From Phycisphaera sp. (GTDB lineage Bacteria; Planctomycetota; Phycisphaerae; Phycisphaerales; Zrk34): a stretch of 64,000 nt of DNA. The notes under the pieces are model-generated. The model made no database searches and was not told the DNA's origin. It worked only from the letters and a program-made list of their open reading frames with translations. The position numbers and the translations under genes are program-made. Shown piece after piece: positions 160 through 57,694 of this stretch. The first letter of the stretch is position 1, and every line of letters begins with the position of its first letter. The DNA lies in contig WGMA01000016.1 of NCBI GenBank assembly GCA_016125285.1, positions 1 to 64,000 of the forward strand. The letters are read 5' to 3'.

Positions 160-1317
160 TCACTGGGCGAGCGCCTTCGCGGCGGCGGCGACGGCTGTGC
201 CCGGGGTGATCTTGACGCCCGCGGCGATGAGCTCGGCCTCGATCGCCATCATCGCCGCCAGCGTGTCGCCGGCGTCGACGTATCCCATGTGGTTCACGCG
301 GAAGATCTTGCCCTTCCACGAGGCGCCGCGGCCGTCCTGTCCGCCGGCGATCGCCATGGCGTGGTTGTCACGCACGGCGCCGCGGAACTTCGAGTCGTCG
401 ATGCCGTCGGGGTAGAAGGCGCCGGTGACCGAATCGCTGGGGCTGGTGGAGCAGAGCTTCAGGCCCATCGCGGTGAACGCGGCGCGTGTGGCGGCGGCGA
501 GCTTGGCGGTGCGGATCCAGATGTTGTCCAGGCCGATCGCCTCCATGGATTTCAGCGCGACGTTCTGTCCGCGGATCAGCGAGACGGGCGGGGTGAACGG
601 CACGTCGTTCTTCTCGTAGCTCTTGAGCCACTTGCGGAGGTCGAGGTTGTAGCAGGGCAGGCCGTCGGTCTGCTCGAGTCGGAGGATGGCGCGGTCGCCG
701 AGTCCGACGAAGCCGAGTCCGGGCGGCAGCATCATGGCCTTCTGCGATCCGGTGACGAGCACGTCGATTCCCCAGGCGTCCATCTCGACGGGCAGGGCGC
801 CGACGGCGGTGATGCCGTCGACGATGAGCAGGGCGTTGGACTGCTGGACGACCTTGGCGATCGCACGGATGTCGCTGTAGGTCGCGGTCGAGGTTTCGGA
901 GGCGACGATACAGACGACGCTGATGTCGGGGTTGTCCTTGAGGGCCTGCTCGATCTGCGCGGGGTCGACGGCGTCGCCCCACGGGACGTTGATCTTGATC
1001 TGCTCGACGCCGTAGGTGTCATAGACGTCCTGCCAGCGCTCGCCGAATTTGCCGCCGGAGATGGTCAGAGCCTTGCGACCGGGCTCGATGAGCGAGATCT
1101 GCGCGGCCTCGAAGGAGGTCGTGCCGGACCCGGCGATCGTCAGGACGGGCGACGACGTGCGGAACAGCTTCTTGAGGCCTTCGCTCATCTCTTTGTAGAT
1201 GGCCTGGAAGGCTTTGGTCCGGTGGTGAATGATGGGCTGAGCCATCTCGAGCAGCACGTCCGGCGGCACGTCGGTGGGCCCCGGGGTCATCACACGCTTC
1301 TTGAACAGCAAAGACAT
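160..1317 (-). CDS. Class V aminotransferase (serine-pyruvate/alanine-glyoxylate aminotransferase family, PLP-dependent)
   Basis: 385-aa ORF. It has the PLP-lysine context 'TGSQKAMM' and a 'GPTDVPPDVL' N-terminus typical of AGXT/SGAT class V aminotransferases. The codon bias is consistent with the rest of the window. Confidence 0.8.
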   Translation of the reverse strand: MSLLFKKRVMTPGPTDVPPDVLLEMAQPIIHHRTKAFQAIYKEMSEGLKKLFRTSSPVLTIAGSGTTSFEAAQISLIEPGRKALTISGGKFGERWQDVYDTYGVEQIKINVPWGDAVDPAQIEQALKDNPDISVVCIVASETSTATYSDIRAIAKVVQQSNALLIVDGITAVGALPVEMDAWGIDVLVTGSQKAMMLPPGLGFVGLGDRAILRLEQTDGLPCYNLDLRKWLKSYEKNDVPFTPPVSLIRGQNVALKSMEAIGLDNIWIRTAKLAAATRAAFTAMGLKLCSTSPSDSVTGAFYPDGIDDSKFRGAVRDNHAMAIAGGQDGRGASWKGKIFRVNHMGYVDAGDTLAAMMAIEAELIAAGVKITPGTAVAAAAKALAQ

Positions 1318-1332
1318 CGTTTGATCCAGTAG

Positions 1333-1367
1333 TCAGGGTTCAGGGTTCAGGGTTCAGGGTTCAGCGT
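1333..1367. repeat. Heptamer tandem repeat (TCAGGGT)x5, last copy degenerate
   Basis: Read directly from the sequence: tcagggt tcagggt tcagggt tcagggt tcagcgt. It lies in the divergent intergenic region between the aminotransferase start and the DUF971-like gene. Confidence 0.9.
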
Positions 1368-1428
1368 GGCGAGCACGCGGATCGGCCATCATAGTGTCCG
1401 TGGCGCGTCGATCAATGGCCGCGTTACA

Positions 1429-1788
1429 ATGCCGGGCATGGACGCCGACCGACCGAAACACGTGGACATCAAGAAGGACCGCGGGCTGACGCTGGAATGG
1501 CCCGACGGGTCGAGCAGCTTTTTTCCGGTGGCGTTCCTGCGCAAGCACAGTCCGTCGGCGGAGATGAAGAACCTGCGGGAGGAGATGGCGCGGAATCCCT
1601 TGACGGTGCTCCCGGCCTCGGCGGTGCACGACGGGCCGCTGACGATCACCGACGCCGAGCTGGTGGGTAACTACGCGATCCGGTTCCAGTTCTCCGACGG
1701 CCACGGCACGGGCATCTACTCGTGGGAGTACCTGCGGGAGATCGATCCGCACGAGCCGGGCGGCGGCGGGCCGAGCGGCGGGGCGTGA
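1429..1788 (+). CDS. DUF971-like protein (gamma-butyrobetaine hydroxylase-like N-terminal domain family)
   Basis: The motif 'LTLEWPDGSSSFFPVAFLRKHSPSAE' matches the DUF971 signature. The ATG at 1429 is in frame with the track ORF 1366..1788, whose N-terminal extension is probably spurious. Confidence 0.6.
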   Translation: MPGMDADRPKHVDIKKDRGLTLEWPDGSSSFFPVAFLRKHSPSAEMKNLREEMARNPLTVLPASAVHDGPLTITDAELVGNYAIRFQFSDGHGTGIYSWEYLREIDPHEPGGGGPSGGA

Positions 1789-1791
1789 TGA

Positions 1792-1913
1792 GGGAATTGC
1801 AAATTGCAGATTGGTCATTGCAAATTGCAAAGTGTCGGAGGGCCGCAGCCGTACGTTTGATCGCCGCCTCCAATGACCAATTTGAAATGTTCAATTTTCA
1901 ATTTGCAATTCCC
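1792..1913. repeat. AT-rich TTGCAA-rich inverted-repeat element, copy A (~45-nt arms around a GC-rich spacer)
   Basis: The left arm is gggaattgcaaattgcagattggtcattgcaaattgcaaag. The right arm, reverse-complemented, is gggaattgcaaattgaaaattgaacatttcaaattggtcattg. The termini GGGAATTGCAAA...TTTGCAATTCCC form a terminal inverted repeat. Confidence 0.85.
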
Positions 1914-1944
1914 TCGTGACTCGCGAGAGAGGTATGATCTCCCG

Positions 1945-2214
1945 ATGCCGACGATCGGGTTTACCGCCAACGTTGCGAAGTATGTCGACGTGTCGCCGCC
2001 GCGGCTGACGGGCGACACGGTGCGCGCGGCGCTGGAGGATCTGTTCGCGATCAACCCGAAGCTGCGCAGCTACGTGCTGGACGACCAGGGCGCGGTGCGC
2101 ACGCACGTGGTGGTGTTCGTCAACGGTGAAGCGATCGCGGACCGGGCGACGCTGAGCGAAGCGGTGAAGGACGATGACGAAATCTTCATCGCGCAGGCGC
2201 TGAGCGGGGGATAA
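1945..2214 (+). CDS. MoaD/ThiS-family sulfur-carrier-like protein (C-terminal Gly-Gly)
   Basis: 89 aa ending in ...AQALSGG followed by a stop. It has the MoaD/ThiS size and a beta-grasp-like hydrophobic pattern. The track ORF 1873 start lies inside repeat element A, so the ATG at 1945 is preferred. Confidence 0.6.
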   Translation: MPTIGFTANVAKYVDVSPPRLTGDTVRAALEDLFAINPKLRSYVLDDQGAVRTHVVVFVNGEAIADRATLSEAVKDDDEIFIAQALSGG

Positions 2215-2322
2215 GGAAATGCAAATTGAAAAATGCAAAATGCAAAATGCAAAATGTGCGCCCAGGTGCGGCGCGCATCCATTTTGCGATTTGCAATTCT
2301 CATTTTGCAATCTGCAATTTCC
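2215..2322. repeat. AT-rich TTGCAA/ATGCAA-rich inverted-repeat element, copy B
   Basis: The arms are ggaaatgcaaattgaaaaatgcaaaatgcaaaatgcaaaatgtg and cattttgcgatttgcaattctcattttgcaatctgcaatttcc, around the GC spacer gcgcccaggtgcggcgcgc. The termini GGAAATGCA...TGCAATTTCC are inverted. Confidence 0.85.
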
Positions 2323-2343
2323 TCTTCAACGCGGAGTGTTCAC

Positions 2344-3435
2344 ATGATCCTCGTCGGCACCAGAAAGGGTTTGTTCTTCGTCGAAGACGGTCGCATCGCG
2401 TCGGTGCATTTTCCCGGCGTGCAGGTTCCGATGGTGCTGCGTGACCCGCGTGACGGGGCGATCTACGCGGCGCTGGATCACGGGCACTTCGGCGGCAAGC
2501 TGCACCGCAGTGACGACGAGGGCAAGACGTGGGAGGAGCTGACGCCGCCGACGTTTCCGCCGAAGCCGGACGACGTGGAGGACATCTATTGTCCGATGCG
2601 CAAGATCGTGATCCCGTGGTCGCTGAAGCTGACGTGGGAGCTGACGCCTGGCGGCGCGGACGAGCCGGGCGTGTTGTGGGCGGGCGTGATCCCGAGCGCG
2701 GTGTTCAAGTCGACCGACCGCGGCGCGACGTGGGAGTTGAATCGACCGCTGTGGGATCAGCCCGGGCGCGCGAAGTGGATGGGCGGCGGGTTCGACTACC
2801 CCGGCGTGCACTCGATCGCGGTCGATCCGGCGGACTCGAAGCACGTGACGATCGCGATCAGCAGCGGCGGCGTGTGGCAGACACGCGACGGCGGGGCGAC
2901 GTGGGCCGCGACGTCGACCGGCATGCACAACAGCTATTCGCCGCCCGGGCAGGAGGGCGAGCCCGAGGGGCAGGACCCGCACCGCATGGTCGTGTGCCCC
3001 GGCGATCCGAAGCGGGCGTGGGTGCAGCATCACTGCGGCATGTATCGCAGCGACGACGGGTGCGACACGTGGGTGGAGCTGAAGGACGTCGAGCCGTCGA
3101 CGTTCGGGTTCGCGGTGGCGGTGCACCCGACGGACGGCGACACGGCGTGGTTCGCGCCGGCGAAGAGCGACATGGAGCGCATGGCTGCGGACGCGCGGGT
3201 GGTGGTGGTCCGCACGCGCGACGGCGGCAAGTCGTTTGAGACGCTGACGAACGGCCTGCCGCAGGAGCACGCGTACGACCTGATCTTCCGGCACTGCCTC
3301 GACGTCGACTCGACCGGCGACCGGCTGGCGATGGGCTCGACGACCGGTTCACTGTGGACGAGCGACGACGGGGGCGACTCGTGGGCGACGGTGTCGGAGC
3401 ATCTGCCGCCGGTGTATTGCGTCAGATTTGGGTGA
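2344..3435 (+). CDS. BNR/Asp-box repeat beta-propeller protein (sialidase-like / xyloglucanase-like fold)
   Basis: Repeated S-x-D-x-G-x-T-W motifs are present: 'SDDEGKTW', 'STDRGATW', 'TRDGGATW', 'SDDGCDTW', 'TRDGGKSF', 'SDDGGDSW'. The ATG at 2344 is preferred over the track start 2233, which lies in repeat element B. Confidence 0.75.
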   Translation: MILVGTRKGLFFVEDGRIASVHFPGVQVPMVLRDPRDGAIYAALDHGHFGGKLHRSDDEGKTWEELTPPTFPPKPDDVEDIYCPMRKIVIPWSLKLTWELTPGGADEPGVLWAGVIPSAVFKSTDRGATWELNRPLWDQPGRAKWMGGGFDYPGVHSIAVDPADSKHVTIAISSGGVWQTRDGGATWAATSTGMHNSYSPPGQEGEPEGQDPHRMVVCPGDPKRAWVQHHCGMYRSDDGCDTWVELKDVEPSTFGFAVAVHPTDGDTAWFAPAKSDMERMAADARVVVVRTRDGGKSFETLTNGLPQEHAYDLIFRHCLDVDSTGDRLAMGSTTGSLWTSDDGGDSWATVSEHLPPVYCVRFG

Positions 3436-3453
3436 TAGCGGGCGCGTCGAGTA

Positions 3454-3591
3454 GGAACTGCAAATTGAAATTGCAGATTGGTCATTGCAAATTGCAAAGT
3501 GCCTGAAGCCTGCGGCTGCGATCGCAGTGGTGAACCTTATCGCTGGCACAATGATCCGTTTGCAATGCTCAATGATCAATTTGCAATTCCC
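3454..3591. repeat. AT-rich TTGCAA-rich inverted-repeat element, copy C
   Basis: The arm ctgcaaattgaaattgcagattggtcattgcaaattgcaaagtg is followed by the inverted arm gtttgcaatgctcaatgatcaatttgcaattccc. The attggtcattgcaaattgcaaag core is shared with copy A. Confidence 0.85.
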
Positions 3592-3621
3592 ATCTGGCGA
3601 CCGTGATACAATCCACGCACC

Positions 3622-5031
3622 ATGAAGGAATGGATCCCGCGCATCGTGGTGCTGGTGCTGTTCGTGGCCGTGGTCGGGCTGCCGGTGTTGTGGCGTCCGG
3701 CTGAGGCGAAGACGGACGCAGATGCGGCGCTGAAGCTCGTGGTGATCACGCCGCACAACGAGCAGATCCGGTTCGAGATCGGGCGGGCGTTCAGCAAGTG
3801 GCACGAGGCGAAGTACGGCGAGGCGGTCGACATCGACTGGCGTGCGATCGGCGGCACGAGCGACATCGAGCGCGTGCTGCTCAGCGAGTACGCGTCGCTG
3901 GCCGAGCAGGGCAAGCTCGAGGACGGCGCGGGGTACGACGTGGTGTTCGGCGGGGGCGACTACTCGTTCGACTTCAAGCTCAAGCCCGGCGTGCAGTGGA
4001 ATGGCAAGATGGAGAGCGTGCTCGAGCCGCTGGACCTCGACGACGCGTTCATCAAAGAGGTGTACCCCGAGCCGACGATCGCGGGCAACAAGCTGTACGA
4101 CCCGGAGCACTACTGGTGGGGTGTGGTGCTGTCGAGCTTCGGCATCGTGTACAACCGCGACGTGCTGAGGCTGCGCGGCGTGCCCGAGCCGAAGACGTGG
4201 GAAGACCTCGGCGACCCGAAGCTCGCGGGGTGGATCGCGCTGGCGGACCCCGAGCACTCGGGCTCGGTGAAGGTGACGTACAACGCGATCGTGCAGAACT
4301 ACGGCTACGAGCGCGGGTGGGCGACGCTGCGACGCGCGTGCGCCAACGCGCGGTACTTCTCCAACAGCAGCTCGAAGGTGCCGCTCGACGTCTCGGCGGG
4401 CGAGGCGGCGGCGGGCATGTGCATCGATTTCTACGGGCGATACCAGGCGAACGTCGTCGGCGCGGACCGCGTGGGCTTCGTCGCGCCGGCGGGGCAGACG
4501 GTGGTGACCGCGGACCCCGTCGCCGTGCTGCGCGGCTGCCAGCGCCCCCAGCTCGCCGAGCGGTTCGTGCGGTGGCTGCTGAGCACCGAGGGGCAGCTGC
4601 TGTGGAACGTGCCGGTCGGCCACGCGGCGGGGCCGGAGAAGTTCGGCCTGCGACGCATGCCCATCCGGCGCGACGTGTACAAGCCGTACCTCGGCGAGAT
4701 GATCGACCGGGTCGACCCCTTCGAGATCGCCAGCCCGCTGCCGGCCGGCACGCCGAGCTACTTCAGCGTGATCGGCCCGGTGATGCACGCGATGGCGATC
4801 GACATCCACGACGACCTGCGCGACGCGTGGCGGACGATCAACCAGACGACCGACGAAGCGCAACGCGCCGAGATGCTCAAGCTGTTCGACGCGATGCCGC
4901 TGACGAGCGACGAGCTGCTCGCCCGCAAGGCGGAGTGGAAGAAGAACCCGGACACGCAGATCGCCGACCGCCTGGCGTGGACGACGTTCTACCGGGACAA
5001 CTACCGGCGCATCGTTGAGATGGGACGCTGA
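3622..5031 (+). CDS. ABC transporter substrate-binding protein (extracellular solute-binding family 1, Fe3+/polyamine-like), orphan
   Basis: 469 aa with an N-terminal signal/TM helix. The overall SBP family 1 pattern includes 'GW...ADPEHSGS' and 'W...G'. No permease or ATPase gene is adjacent. Confidence 0.65.
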   Translation: MKEWIPRIVVLVLFVAVVGLPVLWRPAEAKTDADAALKLVVITPHNEQIRFEIGRAFSKWHEAKYGEAVDIDWRAIGGTSDIERVLLSEYASLAEQGKLEDGAGYDVVFGGGDYSFDFKLKPGVQWNGKMESVLEPLDLDDAFIKEVYPEPTIAGNKLYDPEHYWWGVVLSSFGIVYNRDVLRLRGVPEPKTWEDLGDPKLAGWIALADPEHSGSVKVTYNAIVQNYGYERGWATLRRACANARYFSNSSSKVPLDVSAGEAAAGMCIDFYGRYQANVVGADRVGFVAPAGQTVVTADPVAVLRGCQRPQLAERFVRWLLSTEGQLLWNVPVGHAAGPEKFGLRRMPIRRDVYKPYLGEMIDRVDPFEIASPLPAGTPSYFSVIGPVMHAMAIDIHDDLRDAWRTINQTTDEAQRAEMLKLFDAMPLTSDELLARKAEWKKNPDTQIADRLAWTTFYRDNYRRIVEMGR

Positions 5032-5063
5032 CGGCGCGACCCGCCGAAGCGGGTCGCACCGGG

Positions 5064-6137
5064 TTACGCCACGAGTTCTTCGGGGCGGTACTGCTCGAAC
5101 ATCTTCTTGTCCTGGGCCTTCATGTACGCGGCTTCGCCGGAGATGGTGCCGGCCTTGATGAGTTTCATCAGGCCCTGGTCCATCGTCTGCATGCCGTCAC
5201 GCGAGCCCATTTCGATCATCGACACGATCTTGGAGATGGCGCCGTCGCGGATCATCTGCGACATGCCTTCCTTGCGGACGAGGATCTCCTGGCAGGCGAC
5301 GCGGCCCTTGCCGTCGGCCTTGCGGAGCAGCTGCTGCGAGAAGATCGCGCGGACCGACTCGCTGAGCATCGTCCGGATCATGGGCTGCCGGCCGGAGGGG
5401 AACACGTCGATGATGCGGTCGATGGTCTTCGCGGCGGAGTTGGTGTGCAGCGTGCCGAACACGAGCAGGCCGAGCTCCGCGGCGGTCAGCGCGAGCGAGA
5501 TGGTCTCGAGGTCGCGCATCTCGCCGACGAGGATGACGTCGGGGTCTTCGCGGACGGCGGCGCGGAGGGCCTCGGCGAAGCCGTCGGTGTGCTGGCCGAC
5601 CTCGCGCTGCGTGATGACGGACTGCTGGTTCTCGTGCACGAATTCGATCGGGTCTTCGATGGTCACCACGTGCTTGGAGTATTCCTTGTTGACCTTGTCG
5701 ATGATGGCGGCGAGGGTCGTGGACTTGCCCGAGCCGGTCGGCCCGGTGACGAGGCAGAGGCCGGAGCGGTAGTGCGCGGCGTCGGCGATGGCGTCGGGCA
5801 GGCCGAGGTCCTGGCAGGTGAGGATCTTGTCGGGGATCTGACGGAAGACGGCGCCGTAGCCATGGACCTGCTTGAGGTAGTTGCAGCGGAAACGGGCGAC
5901 GCCCTCGAGGCCGTACGCGAAGTCGAGGTCGCCGGTCTTCTCGTACCGTTCCCAGAGGACCGGCTCGCAGATCTCGACGAGGTACGTGCGCAGCATGTCG
6001 CGCGTGAGGATGGGGTGTCCCTCGATGGGGTGCAGCTCGCCGTGCACGCGGACCTTGGCCGGCTGGCTCTGCAGCAGGTGCAGATCGCTGGCGCCGTTGG
6101 CTTTGACGTATCGGAACAGTTCGTCGATCTTGGCCAT
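5064..6137 (-). CDS. pilT: Type IV pilus retraction ATPase PilT
   Basis: 357 aa with Walker A 'GPTGSGKSTT'. It has the 'DPIEF' Asp box, 'ILVGEMRDLETI' Walker B and 'GTLHTNSAAKTIDRI' His box. The size and absence of an N-terminal domain fit PilT. Confidence 0.9.
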   Translation of the reverse strand: MAKIDELFRYVKANGASDLHLLQSQPAKVRVHGELHPIEGHPILTRDMLRTYLVEICEPVLWERYEKTGDLDFAYGLEGVARFRCNYLKQVHGYGAVFRQIPDKILTCQDLGLPDAIADAAHYRSGLCLVTGPTGSGKSTTLAAIIDKVNKEYSKHVVTIEDPIEFVHENQQSVITQREVGQHTDGFAEALRAAVREDPDVILVGEMRDLETISLALTAAELGLLVFGTLHTNSAAKTIDRIIDVFPSGRQPMIRTMLSESVRAIFSQQLLRKADGKGRVACQEILVRKEGMSQMIRDGAISKIVSMIEMGSRDGMQTMDQGLMKLIKAGTISGEAAYMKAQDKKMFEQYRPEELVA

Positions 6138-20487: not shown

Positions 20488-20507
20488 GGCCGCAGTATAA
20501 CTTCGCG

Positions 20508-20545
20508 ATCCTCACGATGTGGTGAAATTCACTAGCATTAGTGAA
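20508..20545. promoter_or_regulatory. Two adjacent GTGA-N-TCAC palindromes (GTGAAATTCAC and TAGTGAAAATCACTA), candidate EBP/operator site
   Basis: Read directly: ggtgaaattcactagcattagtgaaaatcactatatcc in an AT-rich stretch. It lies about 20-60 nt upstream of the sigma-54 activator start on the minus strand and about 80-110 nt upstream of the divergent -24/-12 element. Confidence 0.55.
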
Positions 20546-20620
20546 AATCACTATATCCTCCAGGACATTAGAAAATACGTATCTTTATTAAATAAAGAGC
20601 ATTATGCGTAATTTTGGCTC

Positions 20621-20636
20621 TGGCACGTCTGTTGCA
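20621..20636 (+). promoter_or_regulatory. Sigma-54 (-24/-12) promoter: TGGCACG-N4-TTGCA
   Basis: The sequence tggcacgtctgttgca matches the RpoN consensus TGGCACG-N4-TTGCW exactly. It is oriented toward the + strand genes at 20686 and 21172. Confidence 0.7.
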
Positions 20637-35820: not shown

Positions 35821-36053
35821 TTATTGCGTCGCGGTTTCGGGCTTCTTGGTGTTGCTGACGTTGATCACTTGCGGCTGCGTGCCGTCGGTGTCTTCACCGG
35901 GCGACGCAAACGCCGCGGCGGGCGCCTCCGTCGGGGGGCCCATGATGATCGGTCCCCGCGCGTTCGGCGCCGAACCGTTCTCCGAGCAACCGCCCAGCGT
36001 CAAAGCGAACACCGCGAACAGAATCGTGATGGAACCTGCGAGCCTCGACATGA
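35821..36053 (-). CDS. Small lipoprotein (hypothetical)
   Basis: 'MSRLAGSITILFAVFALTLGGCSENG' is a lipobox signal. The upstream part of track ORF 35821..36279 is probably not translated. Confidence 0.4.
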
Positions 36054-36522
36054 CTATCCCTTTCAACACAACGGTATCAAATACCACTTGACGTGAATCA
36101 CTCAGCAAACCGGGTTGTGAGTCCCAATCCGCAAACCACTTTCGCCCGTGTGAGACGTGCCGGAACACGGAGCGAAATTGAACGCAACCGACTCGCCTGG
36201 CAAGGAAAATCCCAACGAAACCCCGTACAGGGAGCCTTGCAAGGCCGTCCGTGGGGTCAACACGCTTGAAAGAACGCATGTGACATCACGAACAAGAACA
36301 ACTTGTCTGGTTAGGTGCGGGTCGGCGCTGCTTGACCGTCAGGGAGGAGAGATGAATAAGGCCGGGTACTGAATAACCTGACGTTCAAATTTCAGCGCGT
36401 GTCTCGATTACCGCAAAGCAATGATGTGAAACTTCTACTTCCGTTACCAAATGAACAGTAGCAACGGTCGAAATGAGAGTCAACTATTTGGTTAAAAAAT
36501 TGGGCAAGTTCCATGCGGTATT

Positions 36523-37737
36523 TCACGTCGGCTTGGCGTCGTCGTTGGCGCGTGATCCGGCGGTCTGCTGGCGGTATCGGCCGGGCGTGACGCCGAGCCG
36601 CCGCTTGAAGAGCGTCGCCAGGTGCTGCGGGTGGGCGAAGCCGGTGCGCCGGGCGATCCGCTCGAGCGTCAGGTCCGTGTCGCGCAGTAGCCGCTGCACG
36701 TGCTCGAGGCGGACACGCGTGATCTCCGCCTTGGGCGATCGGCCGAGCGCGGCGCGCATCTTCCGCTCCAGCGAACTCCGCGACATCGGCACGGCGTCGA
36801 GCACGTCCTCCGTCGTGATGCCCCGGTCGGCGTTCTCGCGGATGAACCGCACCGCATCGGCGATGTCTGCGTCGGCGATCGCCACGACGTCCGAAGACTG
36901 ACGCGTGACGATGCCGATCGGCGGCACCTCGATGGCGCGCGGCTTCGTCGGCGTCTTCGCGCCGCGCCCGCCGCGCCCGCGCATCAGGCCGTCCAGCAGC
37001 CGCGCCGCTTCGTAGCCGATCCGCTCGGCGTTGAACGTCACGCTCGACAGCGGCGGCGTCGACATCAGGCAAAGCGACTCGTCGTTCTCCGCGCCGACCA
37101 CCGCCATCTCCTCCGGCACCGCCACGCCCGCGCGCCGGCACGCGTCCAGCAGCCAGAACCCCAACTGGTCCGTGCACGCCAGCACGCCCACCGGCTTAGG
37201 CAGCGACGTCACCCACGCCGCGAGCCGCTCCTGCTCGCGCTCCCACTCGCGCGGCTTCTCCCGCTGACCCGCCGCGTGGTACACGCTCACCTCGTGCCCC
37301 AGCTCGCGCAGGTACTTCACGAACGTGTCCCGCCGCTGTGCGAAGTACGCCTGCGTGTCAATGTCGTACACGGCGAACCGCGTGAAGCCGCGGTCGATCA
37401 GGTGCTCGGCGACCATGCGCCCCAGCGCCGCGTTGTCGACGCCAACGAACGGCAGGTCGTGCCGCAGGTGCGTGGCGCGCAGCTCCACCGCCGGCAGCCC
37501 GAGCCGACGGATCACGTTCGCCGTCGCCTGCACCTCCGTGCGCGTGAGGATCCCGTCGCCTCGCCACCGGCTCAGCCACGGCGGGGCGTTCGTGTCCAGG
37601 TGCCGCAACTCCACGTACAGCGACCACGGCCCGTGCTCGTCGACGTAACGCTTCACCCCGCGCAACAGCCCGCGGCCGTAGCTCCGCGACGTCTCGATCA
37701 GCAACGCCACGTGCGGCGTCTTACGCGTGCGCGCCAT
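36523..37737 (-). CDS. XylR-like transcriptional regulator (periplasmic-binding-protein-like sugar-sensing domain + AraC-type HTH)
   Basis: The N-terminus has a LacI/PBP-like fold, 'VALLIETSRSYGRGLLRGV...VGVLACTDQLG'. The C-terminus is AraC HTH: 'ITTEDVLDAVPMSRSSLERKMRAALGRSPKAEITRVRLEHVQRLLRDTDLTLERIARRTGFAHPQHLATLFKRRLGVTPGRYR'. Confidence 0.8.
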   Translation of the reverse strand: MARTRKTPHVALLIETSRSYGRGLLRGVKRYVDEHGPWSLYVELRHLDTNAPPWLSRWRGDGILTRTEVQATANVIRRLGLPAVELRATHLRHDLPFVGVDNAALGRMVAEHLIDRGFTRFAVYDIDTQAYFAQRRDTFVKYLRELGHEVSVYHAAGQREKPREWEREQERLAAWVTSLPKPVGVLACTDQLGFWLLDACRRAGVAVPEEMAVVGAENDESLCLMSTPPLSSVTFNAERIGYEAARLLDGLMRGRGGRGAKTPTKPRAIEVPPIGIVTRQSSDVVAIADADIADAVRFIRENADRGITTEDVLDAVPMSRSSLERKMRAALGRSPKAEITRVRLEHVQRLLRDTDLTLERIARRTGFAHPQHLATLFKRRLGVTPGRYRQQTAGSRANDDAKPT

Positions 37738-46652: not shown

Positions 46653-46828
46653 GACCTTTCCCCTGTCTGGCCCACGACGTGGCATCGCCGGGCGTTCTTG
46701 TCTTCGTGTTCCTCACCGCAACGCCGTGTTGCGTGCTGTATACCCGAACAATAGTGTTCAAAATACACGAAGTCAAAGAATCGGGGAAATAACGTACATT
46801 TCGCATAAGTTGGGCTGGAAACGGAGAT

Positions 46829-57621: not shown

Positions 57622-57694
57622 TGGGCAAGGGCGGACTTGAACCGCCGACACCGGCATTTTCAGTGCCGTGCTCTACCAGCTGAGCTACTTGCCC
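57622..57694 (-). tRNA. tRNA-Phe (GAA), CCA not encoded
   Basis: The reverse complement reads GGGCAAG-TA-GCTC-AGCTGGTA-GAGC-A-CGGCA-CTGAAAA-TGCCG-GTGTC-GGCGG-TTCAAGT-CCGCC-CTTGCCC-A. This gives a cloverleaf with anticodon GAA, a TTCAAGT T-loop and an A73 discriminator. Confidence 0.9.

Follow-up and report, generated by a model that had tools for sequence, protein, structure and literature searches.

The window analysed here is a stretch of 64,000 nt from Phycisphaera sp. with a GC content of 66.9%, somewhat below the approximately 70% that a preliminary description of the sequence had assigned to the genome. It harbors a run of four genes for a GBBH-like_N protein, a ThiS-like protein, a BNR/Sortilin-like protein and a solute-binding protein, and each of the three consecutive gaps between them contains an AT-rich inverted repeat. 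These repeats, A (1792-1913), B (2215-2322) and C (3454-3591), were all located precisely where the preliminary description had placed them. Their unit had been given as the hexamer TTGCAA; it is actually a tandem heptamer (ATTGCAA, ATTGCAG, ATTGGTC or AATGCAA) that contains the palindromic TTGCAA. Each element consists of a mirrored pair of tandem 7-base arrays (ATTGCAA or AATGCAA) with 5-6 units per arm, in the following arrangement.

Separate array, 1333..1364 (no strand): (TCAGGGT)4.6, located immediately upstream, in the divergent gap; period 7, other unit family
Element A, 1792..1913 (no strand): predicted hairpin of -53.5/-54.4 kcal/mol (z -6.0/-7.4); begins 4 nt past the GBBH-like_N stop codon (1786-1788); its end lies 31 nt short of the ThiS-like ATG at 1945
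A left arm, 1792..1834 (+): GGGA followed by ATTGCAA ATTGCAG ATTGGTC ATTGCAA ATTGCAA AGTG; period 7
A centre, 1835..1870 (no strand): GC-rich, folds no better than shuffled sequences; unique save that it partly resembles the beginning of the C centre
A right arm, 1871..1913 (+): reverse-complement heptamers CAATGAC CAATTTG AAATGTT CAATTTT CAATTTG CAATTCCC; 43 nt, 84% complementary
Element B, 2215..2322 (no strand): predicted hairpin of -46.3/-53.4 kcal/mol; abuts the ThiS-like stop codon (TAA 2212-2214); its end lies 21 nt short of the BNR/Sortilin-like ATG at 2344
B left arm, 2215..2258 (+): GGA followed by AATGCAA ATTGAAA, three times AATGCAA, and AATG; unit variant AATGCAA; period 7, 5.7 copies, 87% matches
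B right arm, 2280..2322 (+): CATTTTG CGATTTG CAATTCT CATTTTG CAATCTG CAATTTCC
Element C, 3454..3591 (no strand): predicted hairpin of -51.2/-54.1 kcal/mol; begins 18 nt past the BNR stop codon (TGA 3433-3435); its end lies 30 nt short of the solute-binding-protein ATG at 3622
C left arm, 3454..3501 (+): paralogue of the A left arm, about one unit longer (6-nt insertion in the alignment); 88% over 49 nt
Identical stretch, 3468..3501 (+): 34 nt of C identical to 1801-1834 in A
C right arm, 3549..3591 (+): CAATGAT CCGTTTG CAATGCT CAATGAT CAATTTG CAATTCCC; 84% to the A right arm

Period 7 of the arms was recovered by Tandem Repeats Finder, and a repeat search found arms of 38-53 nt with a complementarity of 74-84%. 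Within the window, TTGCAAATTGCAA with up to two mismatches gave 17 matches versus 0.25 expected, and the pattern ATTGN3ATTGN3ATTG with up to one mismatch gave 15 versus 0 expected; every one of these matches lies within A, B or C, and motif scans detected no further copies of the element in the other 60 kb. By our own arithmetic, the chance that three gaps in a row are occupied, among a total of about 45, is p ~0.003. The element ends read GGRR followed by ATTGCAA. Inverted termini had been described for all three copies; they are perfect in A only (15 nt, GGGAATTGCAAATTG), while B and C carry variants. A comparison with Rfam gave no match at either of two thresholds, one of them the gathering score, the best E-value being 0.92 for a microRNA model.

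Elements A and C share 88% identity over 49 nt. This similarity extends into the centre, of which only the first ~15 nt align; otherwise the centres of A, B and C differ. The 23-nt core previously reported as common to A and C is real, and the identical stretch actually measures 34 nt, which identifies A and C as recent copies or gene-conversion partners. Independent support for the sequence comes from the Logan assembly contig L001, which is 100% identical over 2220-3497. Its ends lie inside B and C and illustrate how such arrays break short-read assemblies.

The arrays also influence gene prediction. They lack stop codons, and ORF calls are therefore extended into them, which produced two wrong starts in the window. 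As had been noticed before, the ORFs 1873..2214 and 2233..3435 begin within repeat arms; the likelier starts are 1945 (not 1873) and 2344 (not 2233). Annotated proteins also gain 7-residue peptide repeats (NCKLQIA and similar) from the arrays.

A family of heptamer arrays in several phyla

The suggestion of a dispersed family holds in general terms: individual genomes can carry arrays on several of their contigs, and at least six phyla are represented. The 80 loci listed by the collection scans, in which metagenome figures refer to the matches listed, include 31 from Planctomycetota, 13 from Acidobacteriota, 10 from Verrucomicrobiota, 6 from Chloroflexota, 4 from Nitrospirota and 3 from Cyanobacteria. 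The locus thus leads to a large heptamer family of which we found no description in the searchable literature; searches with the DNA repeat and with the encoded peptide strings matched nothing relevant.

In a period census of the fetched DNA, whose loci had been selected for ATTGCAA arrays, period 7 accounted for 523 arrays and periods 5, 6, 8 and 9 for 12, 60, 35 and 15, respectively. There were 162 different canonical units, and 140 of the period-7 arrays were unrelated to ATTGCAA. The commonest of the unrelated heptamer families in these loci is AACCCTG. An AYTG core common to all bacterial heptamer repeats was considered and rejected, as it occurs in 21 of the 140 unrelated arrays, near the ~10% given by chance.

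Roughly half of the arrays are solo. Arm lengths are spread evenly between 3 and 6 units, with a sharp drop beyond, and within the unit the four ATTG positions show 49-73 mismatches versus 86-127 at positions 5-7 (p = 3.5e-11). The outer flanks are purine-rich (GGRR). Copies cluster locally, as in the window and at the loci L034 and L261, and can be paralogous, as are A and C. On one contig of 7 kb, at least three of the 39-nt arrays are perfect and identical, and two further copies, one of them inverted, have a single mismatch. Units at the same site can diverge to quite different sequences.

Copies between and within genes

Copies occupy any type of intergenic gap. Elements were found in 34 tandem, 6 convergent and 5 divergent gaps compared with a baseline of 305/63/64, which amounts to no preference. 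They also occur in frame at permissive sites of genes: 36 of 322 arrays or elements lie within long open frames whose composition is coding-like to either side, and Pfam domains span the insertions. The genes concerned include those for DnaE2, GH94, PolB, ValRS and MMPL proteins; a dnaE2 gene (L034) carries four copies, and further examples are the GH94 gene of L138 and the MMPL gene of L105. The three copies of the window are all intergenic.

In dnaE2, the same four positions are occupied, with different units, in proteins that are only 62-78% identical, and this fits turnover in place better than repeated transposition. Two DnaE2 proteins of 99% identity are wholly different at one of the repeat hot spots, and the ORF fragments of relatives with 90% identity break exactly at the four hot spots.

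These data bear on the proposal of an operator array for the local gene set, or more generally of binding sites for one protein that reads ATTG every 7 bases, which could be regulatory, nucleoid-associated or, like a cold-shock protein, a binder of single strands. An ATTG core about twice as conserved as positions 5-7, the regular spacing, the fixed orientation (see below) and the three copies in consecutive gaps of one gene cluster would all suit such a protein. However, there is no relation among the neighbouring genes, be it between loci or across many phyla, gap types stay at baseline, copies are found in frame inside genes, and units at the same site drift to quite different sequences. 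In addition, the available BNR-homologue loci, which are distant (about 60% identity, only about 63% for the nearest homologues, synteny not kept), contain no heptamer arrays, and no adjacent regulator gene was identified among the six genes screened (160-6137). We therefore regard a binding-site array as very unlikely.

Folding and transcription signals

Folding the elements, as had been proposed, predicted stable hairpins on both strands (-46 to -54 kcal/mol, z -3.3 to -7.4). The centres, described earlier as GC-rich and stem-capable, are indeed GC-rich, but they fold no better than shuffled sequences (z +0.4 to +1.3). Strong bidirectional hairpins between genes could represent a selected structural signal between transcription units, either an RNA hairpin acting as terminator, processing site or 3'-end protector, or an AT-rich insulator or UP-like element. 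Several observations point in this direction. In tandem gaps the elements start at a median of 11.5 nt past the stop codon, and an A-rich 5' arm followed by a U-rich 3' arm would correspond to the order seen in bidirectional terminators. Boxes resembling a -10 element lie just past A (TATGAT, 1933-1938) and C (TGATACAAT, 3604-3612), and such a box is present at only 3 of the 46 genes of the window. Furthermore, most of the heptamer repeats of Xanthomonas are transcribed (PMC4692102).

A search of 1250-3750 for intrinsic terminators returned 0 terminator-like sites versus 1.8 in shuffled sequences; a GC stem with a T run is missing, and the centres are unstructured, so that intrinsic termination was rejected. 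A sigma-70 promoter scan of the same region detected no strong promoter; such promoter-like matches as it gave were weak. A role as -35 box for the TTGCAA in the right arms was considered and discarded, the distance of 20-24 nt to the -10-like boxes being too long, and the spacing of the heptamers, judged by eye against consensus sequences, does not match a sigma-54 or IHF site.

Further results also argue against a structural signal. The family has no folding advantage on the sense strand (14 versus 19, p = 0.52), and divergent gaps are not depleted. The ATTGCAG variant lacks the A/U asymmetry, yet the observed pairs of this type keep their polarity. Roughly half of the arrays, being solo, lack a partner arm, and many copies reside in coding sequences, where termination would harm. 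Taken together, selection for such a signal appears quite improbable.

Orientation of the arms and mobility

Inverted pairs are polar: read along either strand, the ATTG array is the 5' one of the two and the CAAT array follows. Pairs with ATTG first outnumber the opposite order by 39 to 6 (raw; about 4 of the 6 are true) in an unbiased sample and by 55 to 3 in the genome set, and among the matches listed for unseeded pairs from the metagenome and genome sets by 14 to 3. All three window elements are pairs of opposite-strand arrays in the preferred orientation.

The two arms of an element are mirror copies offset by whole units. Non-consensus units common to both arms were found in 37 of 97 elements, compared with 9.8 on average and 17 at most over 1000 permutations. 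Of the 62 shared units, 24 are in register and the remainder are mostly offset by 1-2 units; within an element, the difference between the arms amounts to whole units. A telomerase-like, separate addition of arms to the two ends of a break, which would explain the polarity, was rejected, since rare variant units are shared far above chance.

Fixed polarity would also suit a non-autonomous mobile element, similar to REPIN, RPE or SDR sequences, that is moved in trans by a putative enzyme encoded elsewhere, which would read the folded heptamer hairpin or the purine-rich ends and insert the element with no target duplication. The GGRR outer flanks and the higher conservation of ATTG relative to the rest of the unit are consistent with recognition of this kind. 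So are the appearance of new copies within otherwise conserved genes, the spread over several contigs of one genome and of one unit over many phyla, and the 7-kb contig with its identical 39-nt arrays. Flanking direct repeats measure 5, 0 and 3 nt at A, B and C; in the family the best flanking repeat has a mean of 2.41 nt versus 2.40 nt in controls with mismatched flanks (n=95), and target-site duplication is thus not above background. Single-strand transposition of the HUH type (IS200/IS605 and RAYT systems) produces no target-site duplication, and the missing duplication would suit it.

Against mobility of this type, the mostly unique centres leave no master copy, about half of the arrays are solo, and arm length and unit content vary freely. 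Copies form local clusters (the window, L034 and L261) rather than scatter, and turnover in place accounts better for the dnaE2 hot spots. We judge a mobile element moved in trans to be unlikely. Two specific forms had been suggested by the preliminary description. A MITE, or miniature transposable element with inverted repeats, was rejected, as neither a target-site duplication nor a conserved internal sequence is found: centres differ among A, B, C and other loci, save the partial homology of A and C, and the arms vary unit by unit. A REP-like element holds as an analogy only, namely that of a palindromic intergenic repeat, and was likewise rejected as an identification; the elements carry neither a GTAG nor a CGTC tag, the family is not strictly extragenic (36 of 322 in long open frames), and folding shows no sense-strand bias.

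Origin and maintenance of the elements

On balance we consider it probable that A, B and C are members of a new sequence family within the known class of heptanucleotide repeats, and that they perpetuate themselves at the DNA level rather than serving as a regulatory device for the four genes. The repeat class spans many phyla and lies between as well as inside genes, and this argues for self-propagating repeat DNA instead of a local control site. The elements are convergent pairs of short ATTGCAA-type arrays, with arms of 3-6 units on either side of a centre that is short and mostly unique.

Arrays of this family would arise and turn over through replication slippage by 7 nt. The palindromic TTGCAA core probably favours strand switching or gene conversion, which could copy an array in inverted form and onto nearby sites, and spread would be mostly local, as the paralogues A and C suggest. 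Selection may merely filter where copies survive: survivors would be those situated just past stop codons and clear of the start region of the next gene, and coding loops would tolerate the stop-free units. For the host, the by-product would be an AT-rich structure between cistrons, a cruciform in DNA or a hairpin in RNA whose stem measures ~40 bp, which may pause polymerases or be cleaved by double-strand RNases.

Slippage alone does not account for the presence of the ATTGCAA unit in phyla far apart, for a variation of ATTG that is about half that of positions 5-7, or for the nearly constant polarity of the pairs. Together with the length ceiling and the identical 39-nt arrays, this gives a hint of some agent that acts sequence-specifically, be it a protein or a machinery for copying. 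An extended reading is that arrays are written or homogenised by dedicated sequence-reading machinery and function as 7-nt frameshift switches of error-prone repair in the imuB-dnaE2 mutasome genes of Planctomycetota, with the window elements as off-target or intergenic products. The hints for it are the cross-phylum unit, the ATTG core, the polarity, the ceiling at ~6 units, the at least three identical 39-nt arrays, the four dnaE2 hot spots and the ORF breaks at these sites. We hold this switch to be a decidedly unlikely explanation. The mechanism is constrained by four properties of the family: strict polarity, mirror arms offset by whole units, a unit with a conserved ATTG core shared across phyla, and frequent survival in frame within essential or repair genes.

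Comparison with known repeats

Elements with some of these properties occur in other bacteria. In Nostoc punctiforme, Elhai et al. in 2008 reportedly described SDR sequences of 21-27 nt that appear inserted in genes, hairpins and other repeats and whose insertion is not linked to any known enzyme. SDRs have a fixed sequence, in contrast to the heptamer arrays studied here. Rickettsia palindromic elements (RPE) were reportedly described by Ogata et al. in 2000 as sequences of ~100-150 nt, located in frame in protein genes as well as between genes, and they are not known to have a transposase. The in-frame palindromes in conserved genes that we observed in family members elsewhere (L034, L138, L105) are comparable, but RPEs have a family consensus throughout instead of tandem heptamers, and the window copies are all intergenic. 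RPEs are mentioned in PMC10969869.

REP sequences are 20-40 nt long, bear GTAG or CGTC as a tag, lie outside genes and border a RAYT gene (PMC3116915, PMC3733652). Like REPs and REPINs, the elements are short intergenic palindromes in many copies, often as hairpin-forming inverted doublets, and show no target-site duplication; unlike them, they are untagged and not confined to extragenic DNA.

Closer counterparts are found among heptanucleotide repeats. Geobacter metallireducens harbors multicopy heptanucleotide elements (GGACCGG x4, MTYCTGA x5) within and between genes, which were interpreted by the authors as regulatory sites or RNAs (PMC2700814). They resemble the family in being short arrays of 4-5 heptamers, in their case in tens of copies, and differ in their units. 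Cyanobacterial STRR sequences have been known since 1990 (Mazel 1990, cited in PMC4692102 and PMC4679880), and in 2007 heptanucleotides were identified as the most over-represented long simple repeats in bacteria, for which slippage was put forward as an explanation (Mrazek 2007, cited in PMC4679880 and PMC4692102). STRR and 7-nt LSSR share with our arrays the head-to-tail arrangement, several unit families per genome, an excess of period 7 and a proposed origin by slippage. STRRs are described as direct arrays, whereas polar inverted pairs with mirror-copy arms are found here, and the host in our case is a Phycisphaera-like planctomycete.

The closest match in arrangement is provided by the GGGAATC repeats of Xanthomonas and the GGGGAYT repeats of Nostoc (PMC4692102). 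In contrast to these, the unit described here is AT-rich and allows no G-quadruplex, has a palindromic TTGCAA core, occurs in several phyla instead of one genus, and is frequently present as in-frame coding copies in related loci. Common to both are intergenic tandem heptamers (2 to ~26 units in theirs) in a high-GC genome. In Xanthomonas, the position of the repeats is conserved and their length variable among related species (PMC4692102), and ~75% of the GGGAATC arrays occur in convergent pairs (Rehm et al. 2015, PMC4692102). As in our elements, most arrays there thus consist of two nearby convergent arrays with the potential to form a stem-loop or cruciform, and in both cases the purine-rich arm comes first.

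Inverted repeats in three consecutive intergenic gaps

Four genes on the plus strand, all co-directional, are separated by three gaps, each of which is nearly filled by one AT-rich inverted repeat (A, B or C), in a window with a GC content of 66.9%, taken from a MAG named Phycisphaera sp.:

1438-1788, plus strand, GBBH-like_N/DUF971 gene (Pfam)
1792-1913, element A, AT-rich inverted repeat
1945-2214, plus strand, ThiS/MoaD-like gene (Pfam)
2215-2322, element B, AT-rich inverted repeat
2344-3435, plus strand, BNR/Sortilin-like gene (Pfam)
3454-3591, element C, AT-rich inverted repeat
3622-5031, plus strand, solute-binding-protein gene (Pfam)

The presence of inverted repeats in these gaps, as given in the preliminary description, was confirmed. 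They are not an artefact of a single assembly, since an independent Logan contig matches the window identically from 2220 to 3497, ending within B and C. The BNR protein matches the database protein P0001 with 100% identity. The elements start 4 nt (A), 0 nt (B) and 18 nt (C) after the preceding stop codon, and the distances from their ends to the following start codon are 31, 21 and 30 nt. Open reading frames had also been said to start within the repeats, and those at 1873..2214 and 2233..3435 do begin inside arms. ATTGCAA arrays can be read in all six frames without meeting a stop codon, a property of just 18% of heptamers having five A/T.

Several other features of the window were recorded. 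Boxes resembling a -10 element (TACAAT at 1425-1430, TATGAT at 1933-1938 and TGATACAAT at 3604-3612) end 6-9 nt upstream of three gene starts (1438, 1945 and 3622). As such a box precedes just 3 of the 46 called genes, the small genes downstream of A and C may be separate, nearly leaderless transcription units. A perfect (TCAGGGT)4.6 array occupies 1333-1364, in the divergent gap between an aminotransferase gene (160-1317, minus strand) and the GBBH-like gene; its unit family, AACCCTG, is the commonest heptamer unrelated to ATTGCAA in the fetched loci. Further AT-rich islands (at most 40% GC over 40 nt) at 20507-20630, 36044-36528 and 46726-46814 are without heptamer arrays. The only Rfam match in the window is a tRNA gene (57622-57694, minus strand, 71.8 bits), and no Rfam family matches A, B or C.

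Anatomy of the elements

The arms were originally read as built from hexamers but proved to be tandem heptamers, with a period of 7 in Tandem Repeats Finder. The left arm of A reads GGGA ATTGCAA ATTGCAG ATTGGTC ATTGCAA ATTGCAA AGTG, the unit of B is AATGCAA, and the right arm of each element is the reverse complement of the heptamer arm. Searches of the window returned 17 matches to TTGCAAATTGCAA with up to two mismatches (0.25 expected) and 15 to ATTGN3ATTGN3ATTG with up to one mismatch (0 expected), every one inside A, B or C and none in the other 60 kb. Arms are 38-53 nt long and 74-84% complementary, and hairpins of -46 to -54 kcal/mol (z -3.3 to -7.4) are predicted on both strands. The centres, first described as GC-rich and stem-capable, are GC-rich but no more prone to folding than shuffled sequences (z +0.4 to +1.3). 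A 23-nt core had been reported as common to A and C; the identity in fact spans 34 nt (1801-1834 = 3468-3501), and across 49 nt, extending into the centre, the two are 88% identical. The left arm of C is about one unit longer, with a 6-nt insertion in the alignment. A and C are paralogues.

Distribution across genomes

Scanning one genome per species for the terminal pattern GGRAAYTGCARATTGN3AWTG turned up at least 119 loci. Among the matches listed, almost all are real ATTGCAA or ATTGCAG arrays, and in many cases a centre and then an inverted array come next; the 80 loci listed include Planctomycetota (31), Acidobacteriota (13), Verrucomicrobiota (10), Chloroflexota (6), Nitrospirota (4) and Cyanobacteria (3), and several MAGs have matches on two or three contigs each. 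This spread bears out, in general terms, the earlier suggestion of a dispersed repeat family. Carriers not labelled as MAGs include Planctomycetales bacterium ZRK34 (complete genome), Microseira wollei NIES-4236 and Oscillochloris sp. ZM17-4. A scan of a viral collection gave 15 loci.

Polarity, arm copying and placement

Inverted pairs are nearly always polar on either strand, with an ATTG array followed by a CAAT array. Classified by an A-N-T-G rule, which biases the unit families that are seen, and counted among the matches listed, this order prevailed by 39 vs 6 (raw; about four true reversals) in an unbiased set of metagenome contigs scanned for three perfect units, by 55 vs 3 in the genome set, and by 14 vs 3 when only unseeded pairs from the metagenome and genome sets were counted. 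Roughly one array in two stands alone, with no inverted array paired to it. Inverted pairs of other heptamers (GGGCAGT, GGGATTG, AATGACG) occur in the fetched loci L206 (3644-3773), L258 (2076-2172) and L094 (2689-2841, 4358-4515); in these, too, the purine- or G-rich arm comes first, so the polarity rule may hold for heptamer palindromes in general.

Arms comprise 3-6 units, with a steep fall above six, and the median centre is 24 nt. Both arms carry the same non-consensus units in 37 of 97 elements, whereas 1000 permutations gave 9.8 on average and 17 at most. Of the 62 shared units, 24 are in register, and the remainder are mostly shifted by one or two units. The arms of one element are thus mirror copies of each other. 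In a position-neutral count of variant units, changes in ATTG are roughly half as frequent as changes at positions 5-7 (p = 3.5e-11). The outer flanks are purine-rich (GGRR). That the elements form a protein-binding array is kept as a minor rival explanation.

Gap types, taken from heuristic calls of our own simple GC3-based gene caller, showed no preference (34 tandem, 6 convergent and 5 divergent pairs vs a baseline of 305/63/64). In tandem gaps the element starts a median of 11.5 nt past the stop codon and ends 35 nt short of the next start. Folding of the sense strand was not better than that of the antisense strand (14 vs 19, p = 0.52); a selected structural role is likewise a minor rival.

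In-frame copies in dnaE2 and other genes

In locus L034 (Planctomycetaceae MAG, CAVWEY010000002.1) a single uninterrupted frame of 1088 residues (433-3696) encodes the error-prone polymerase DnaE2 (Pfam DNA_pol3_alpha, finger and HHH_6; E-value 3e-113 against E. coli Pol III alpha). It contains four in-frame elements, one of which splits the HHH_6 domain, and they are translated as ...NCKLQIA... and ...LQFAICN... peptides. Arrays in the 7-kb contig L261 and insertion hot spots in an alignment of DnaE2 proteins (P0121-P0240) are listed with them:

L034, 799-899, 1859-1900, 2915-3007 and 3269-3340, in-frame ATTGCAA elements in dnaE2
L261, 501-539, 1608-1646 and 3344-3382, perfect identical 39-nt (ATTGCAA)5.6 arrays (at least three)
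L261, 786-824 (inverted) and 4865-4903, one-mismatch 39-nt copies
P0121, positions ~64-96, 415-437, 765-786 and 882-911, hypervariable planctomycetal DnaE2 hot spots 1-4

Peptide motifs of the ATTGCAA family were found in 43 of 120 DnaE2 homologues (about five being chance matches to the conserved LNSQP motif) and in 0 of 120 BNR homologues. Further in-frame interruptions affect GH94, PolB, ValRS and MMPL proteins and one BTAD regulator. Insertions in DnaE2 recur at the four hot spots, which from species to species are filled with 7-residue peptide repeats from many different heptamers, and protein length ranges from 1004 to 1323 residues. One such peptide, GSGFRVQ, is encoded by GGTTCAG, the unit of the window array at 1333-1364. 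Another dnaE2, in L262, carries a 175-nt (GCCGACT)25 array in frame (4863-5037, PTADCRL repeats) and a G-rich-first palindromic pair, (GGAGAGG)n...(CTCTCCC)n, at 2367-2473.

All five L261 arrays lie within 4.4 kb, in frame in dnaE2 and in an upstream gene that is regarded as imuB-like because of its conserved C-terminus (no Pfam match). Their equal length and perfection are not as expected from independent slippage. The DnaE2 proteins P0130 and P0243 are 99% identical, yet hot spot 1 holds wholly different repeats in the two. The ORF fragments P0246, P0249, P0252, P0253 and P0258, from the same 90% clusters and some on contigs of 0.1-1.6 Mb, begin or lose frame precisely at hot spots 1 and 2. 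Such differences may reflect natural frameshifting by 7 nt or misassembly of the repeats. The repeats thus change much faster than the gene around them.

Origin of the arrays and comparison with known repeats

The preliminary description had considered a clustered operator array for this small gene set, a MITE and REP-like punctuation. An operator array for these four genes is not supported by the sequence comparisons, because the family spreads across phyla with unrelated neighbours, prefers no gap type and includes copies in coding sequence. Each of the other labels, that of a terminator included, fails a defining feature: target-site duplications, proposed earlier as a check at the termini, were not detected above control level (MITE), copies also lie within coding sequence (REP), and there is no terminator-like site at the locus (terminator).

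On balance, we lean slightly towards regarding A, B and C as DNA-level self-perpetuating palindromic repeats. Slippage would generate the arrays and drive their turnover, while the palindromic TTGCAA core would favour strand switching or gene conversion, which would keep the arms mirror copies and seed sites nearby; selection would set where copies survive. Seeding of nearby sites by either route would explain the paralogy of A and C, as well as the local clustering seen in the window, in L034 and in L261. The model does not account for why several phyla have one unit in common, why ATTG is conserved as a core, why pairs keep one polarity, why arms stop at six units or why L261 holds identical 39-nt arrays. 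A trans-acting machinery, at which these five features hint, is therefore retained as the main rival.

All fetched DNA, from loci themselves chosen for ATTGCAA arrays, contained 523 period-7 arrays, 140 of them unrelated to ATTGCAA, vs 12, 60, 35 and 15 of periods 5, 6, 8 and 9. This agrees with the excess of heptanucleotide repeats attributed to Mrazek 2007, as cited in PMC4679880 and PMC4692102. Heptanucleotide repeats are the closest described class. Multicopy elements of 4-5 heptanucleotides lie inside and between genes in Geobacter (PMC2700814). The best match is the GGGAATC arrays of Xanthomonas, which vary in length at conserved positions and have no assigned function; 70-75 of ~185 arrays' pairs are in convergent orientation (PMC4692102), as are the heptamer pairs of A, B and C.
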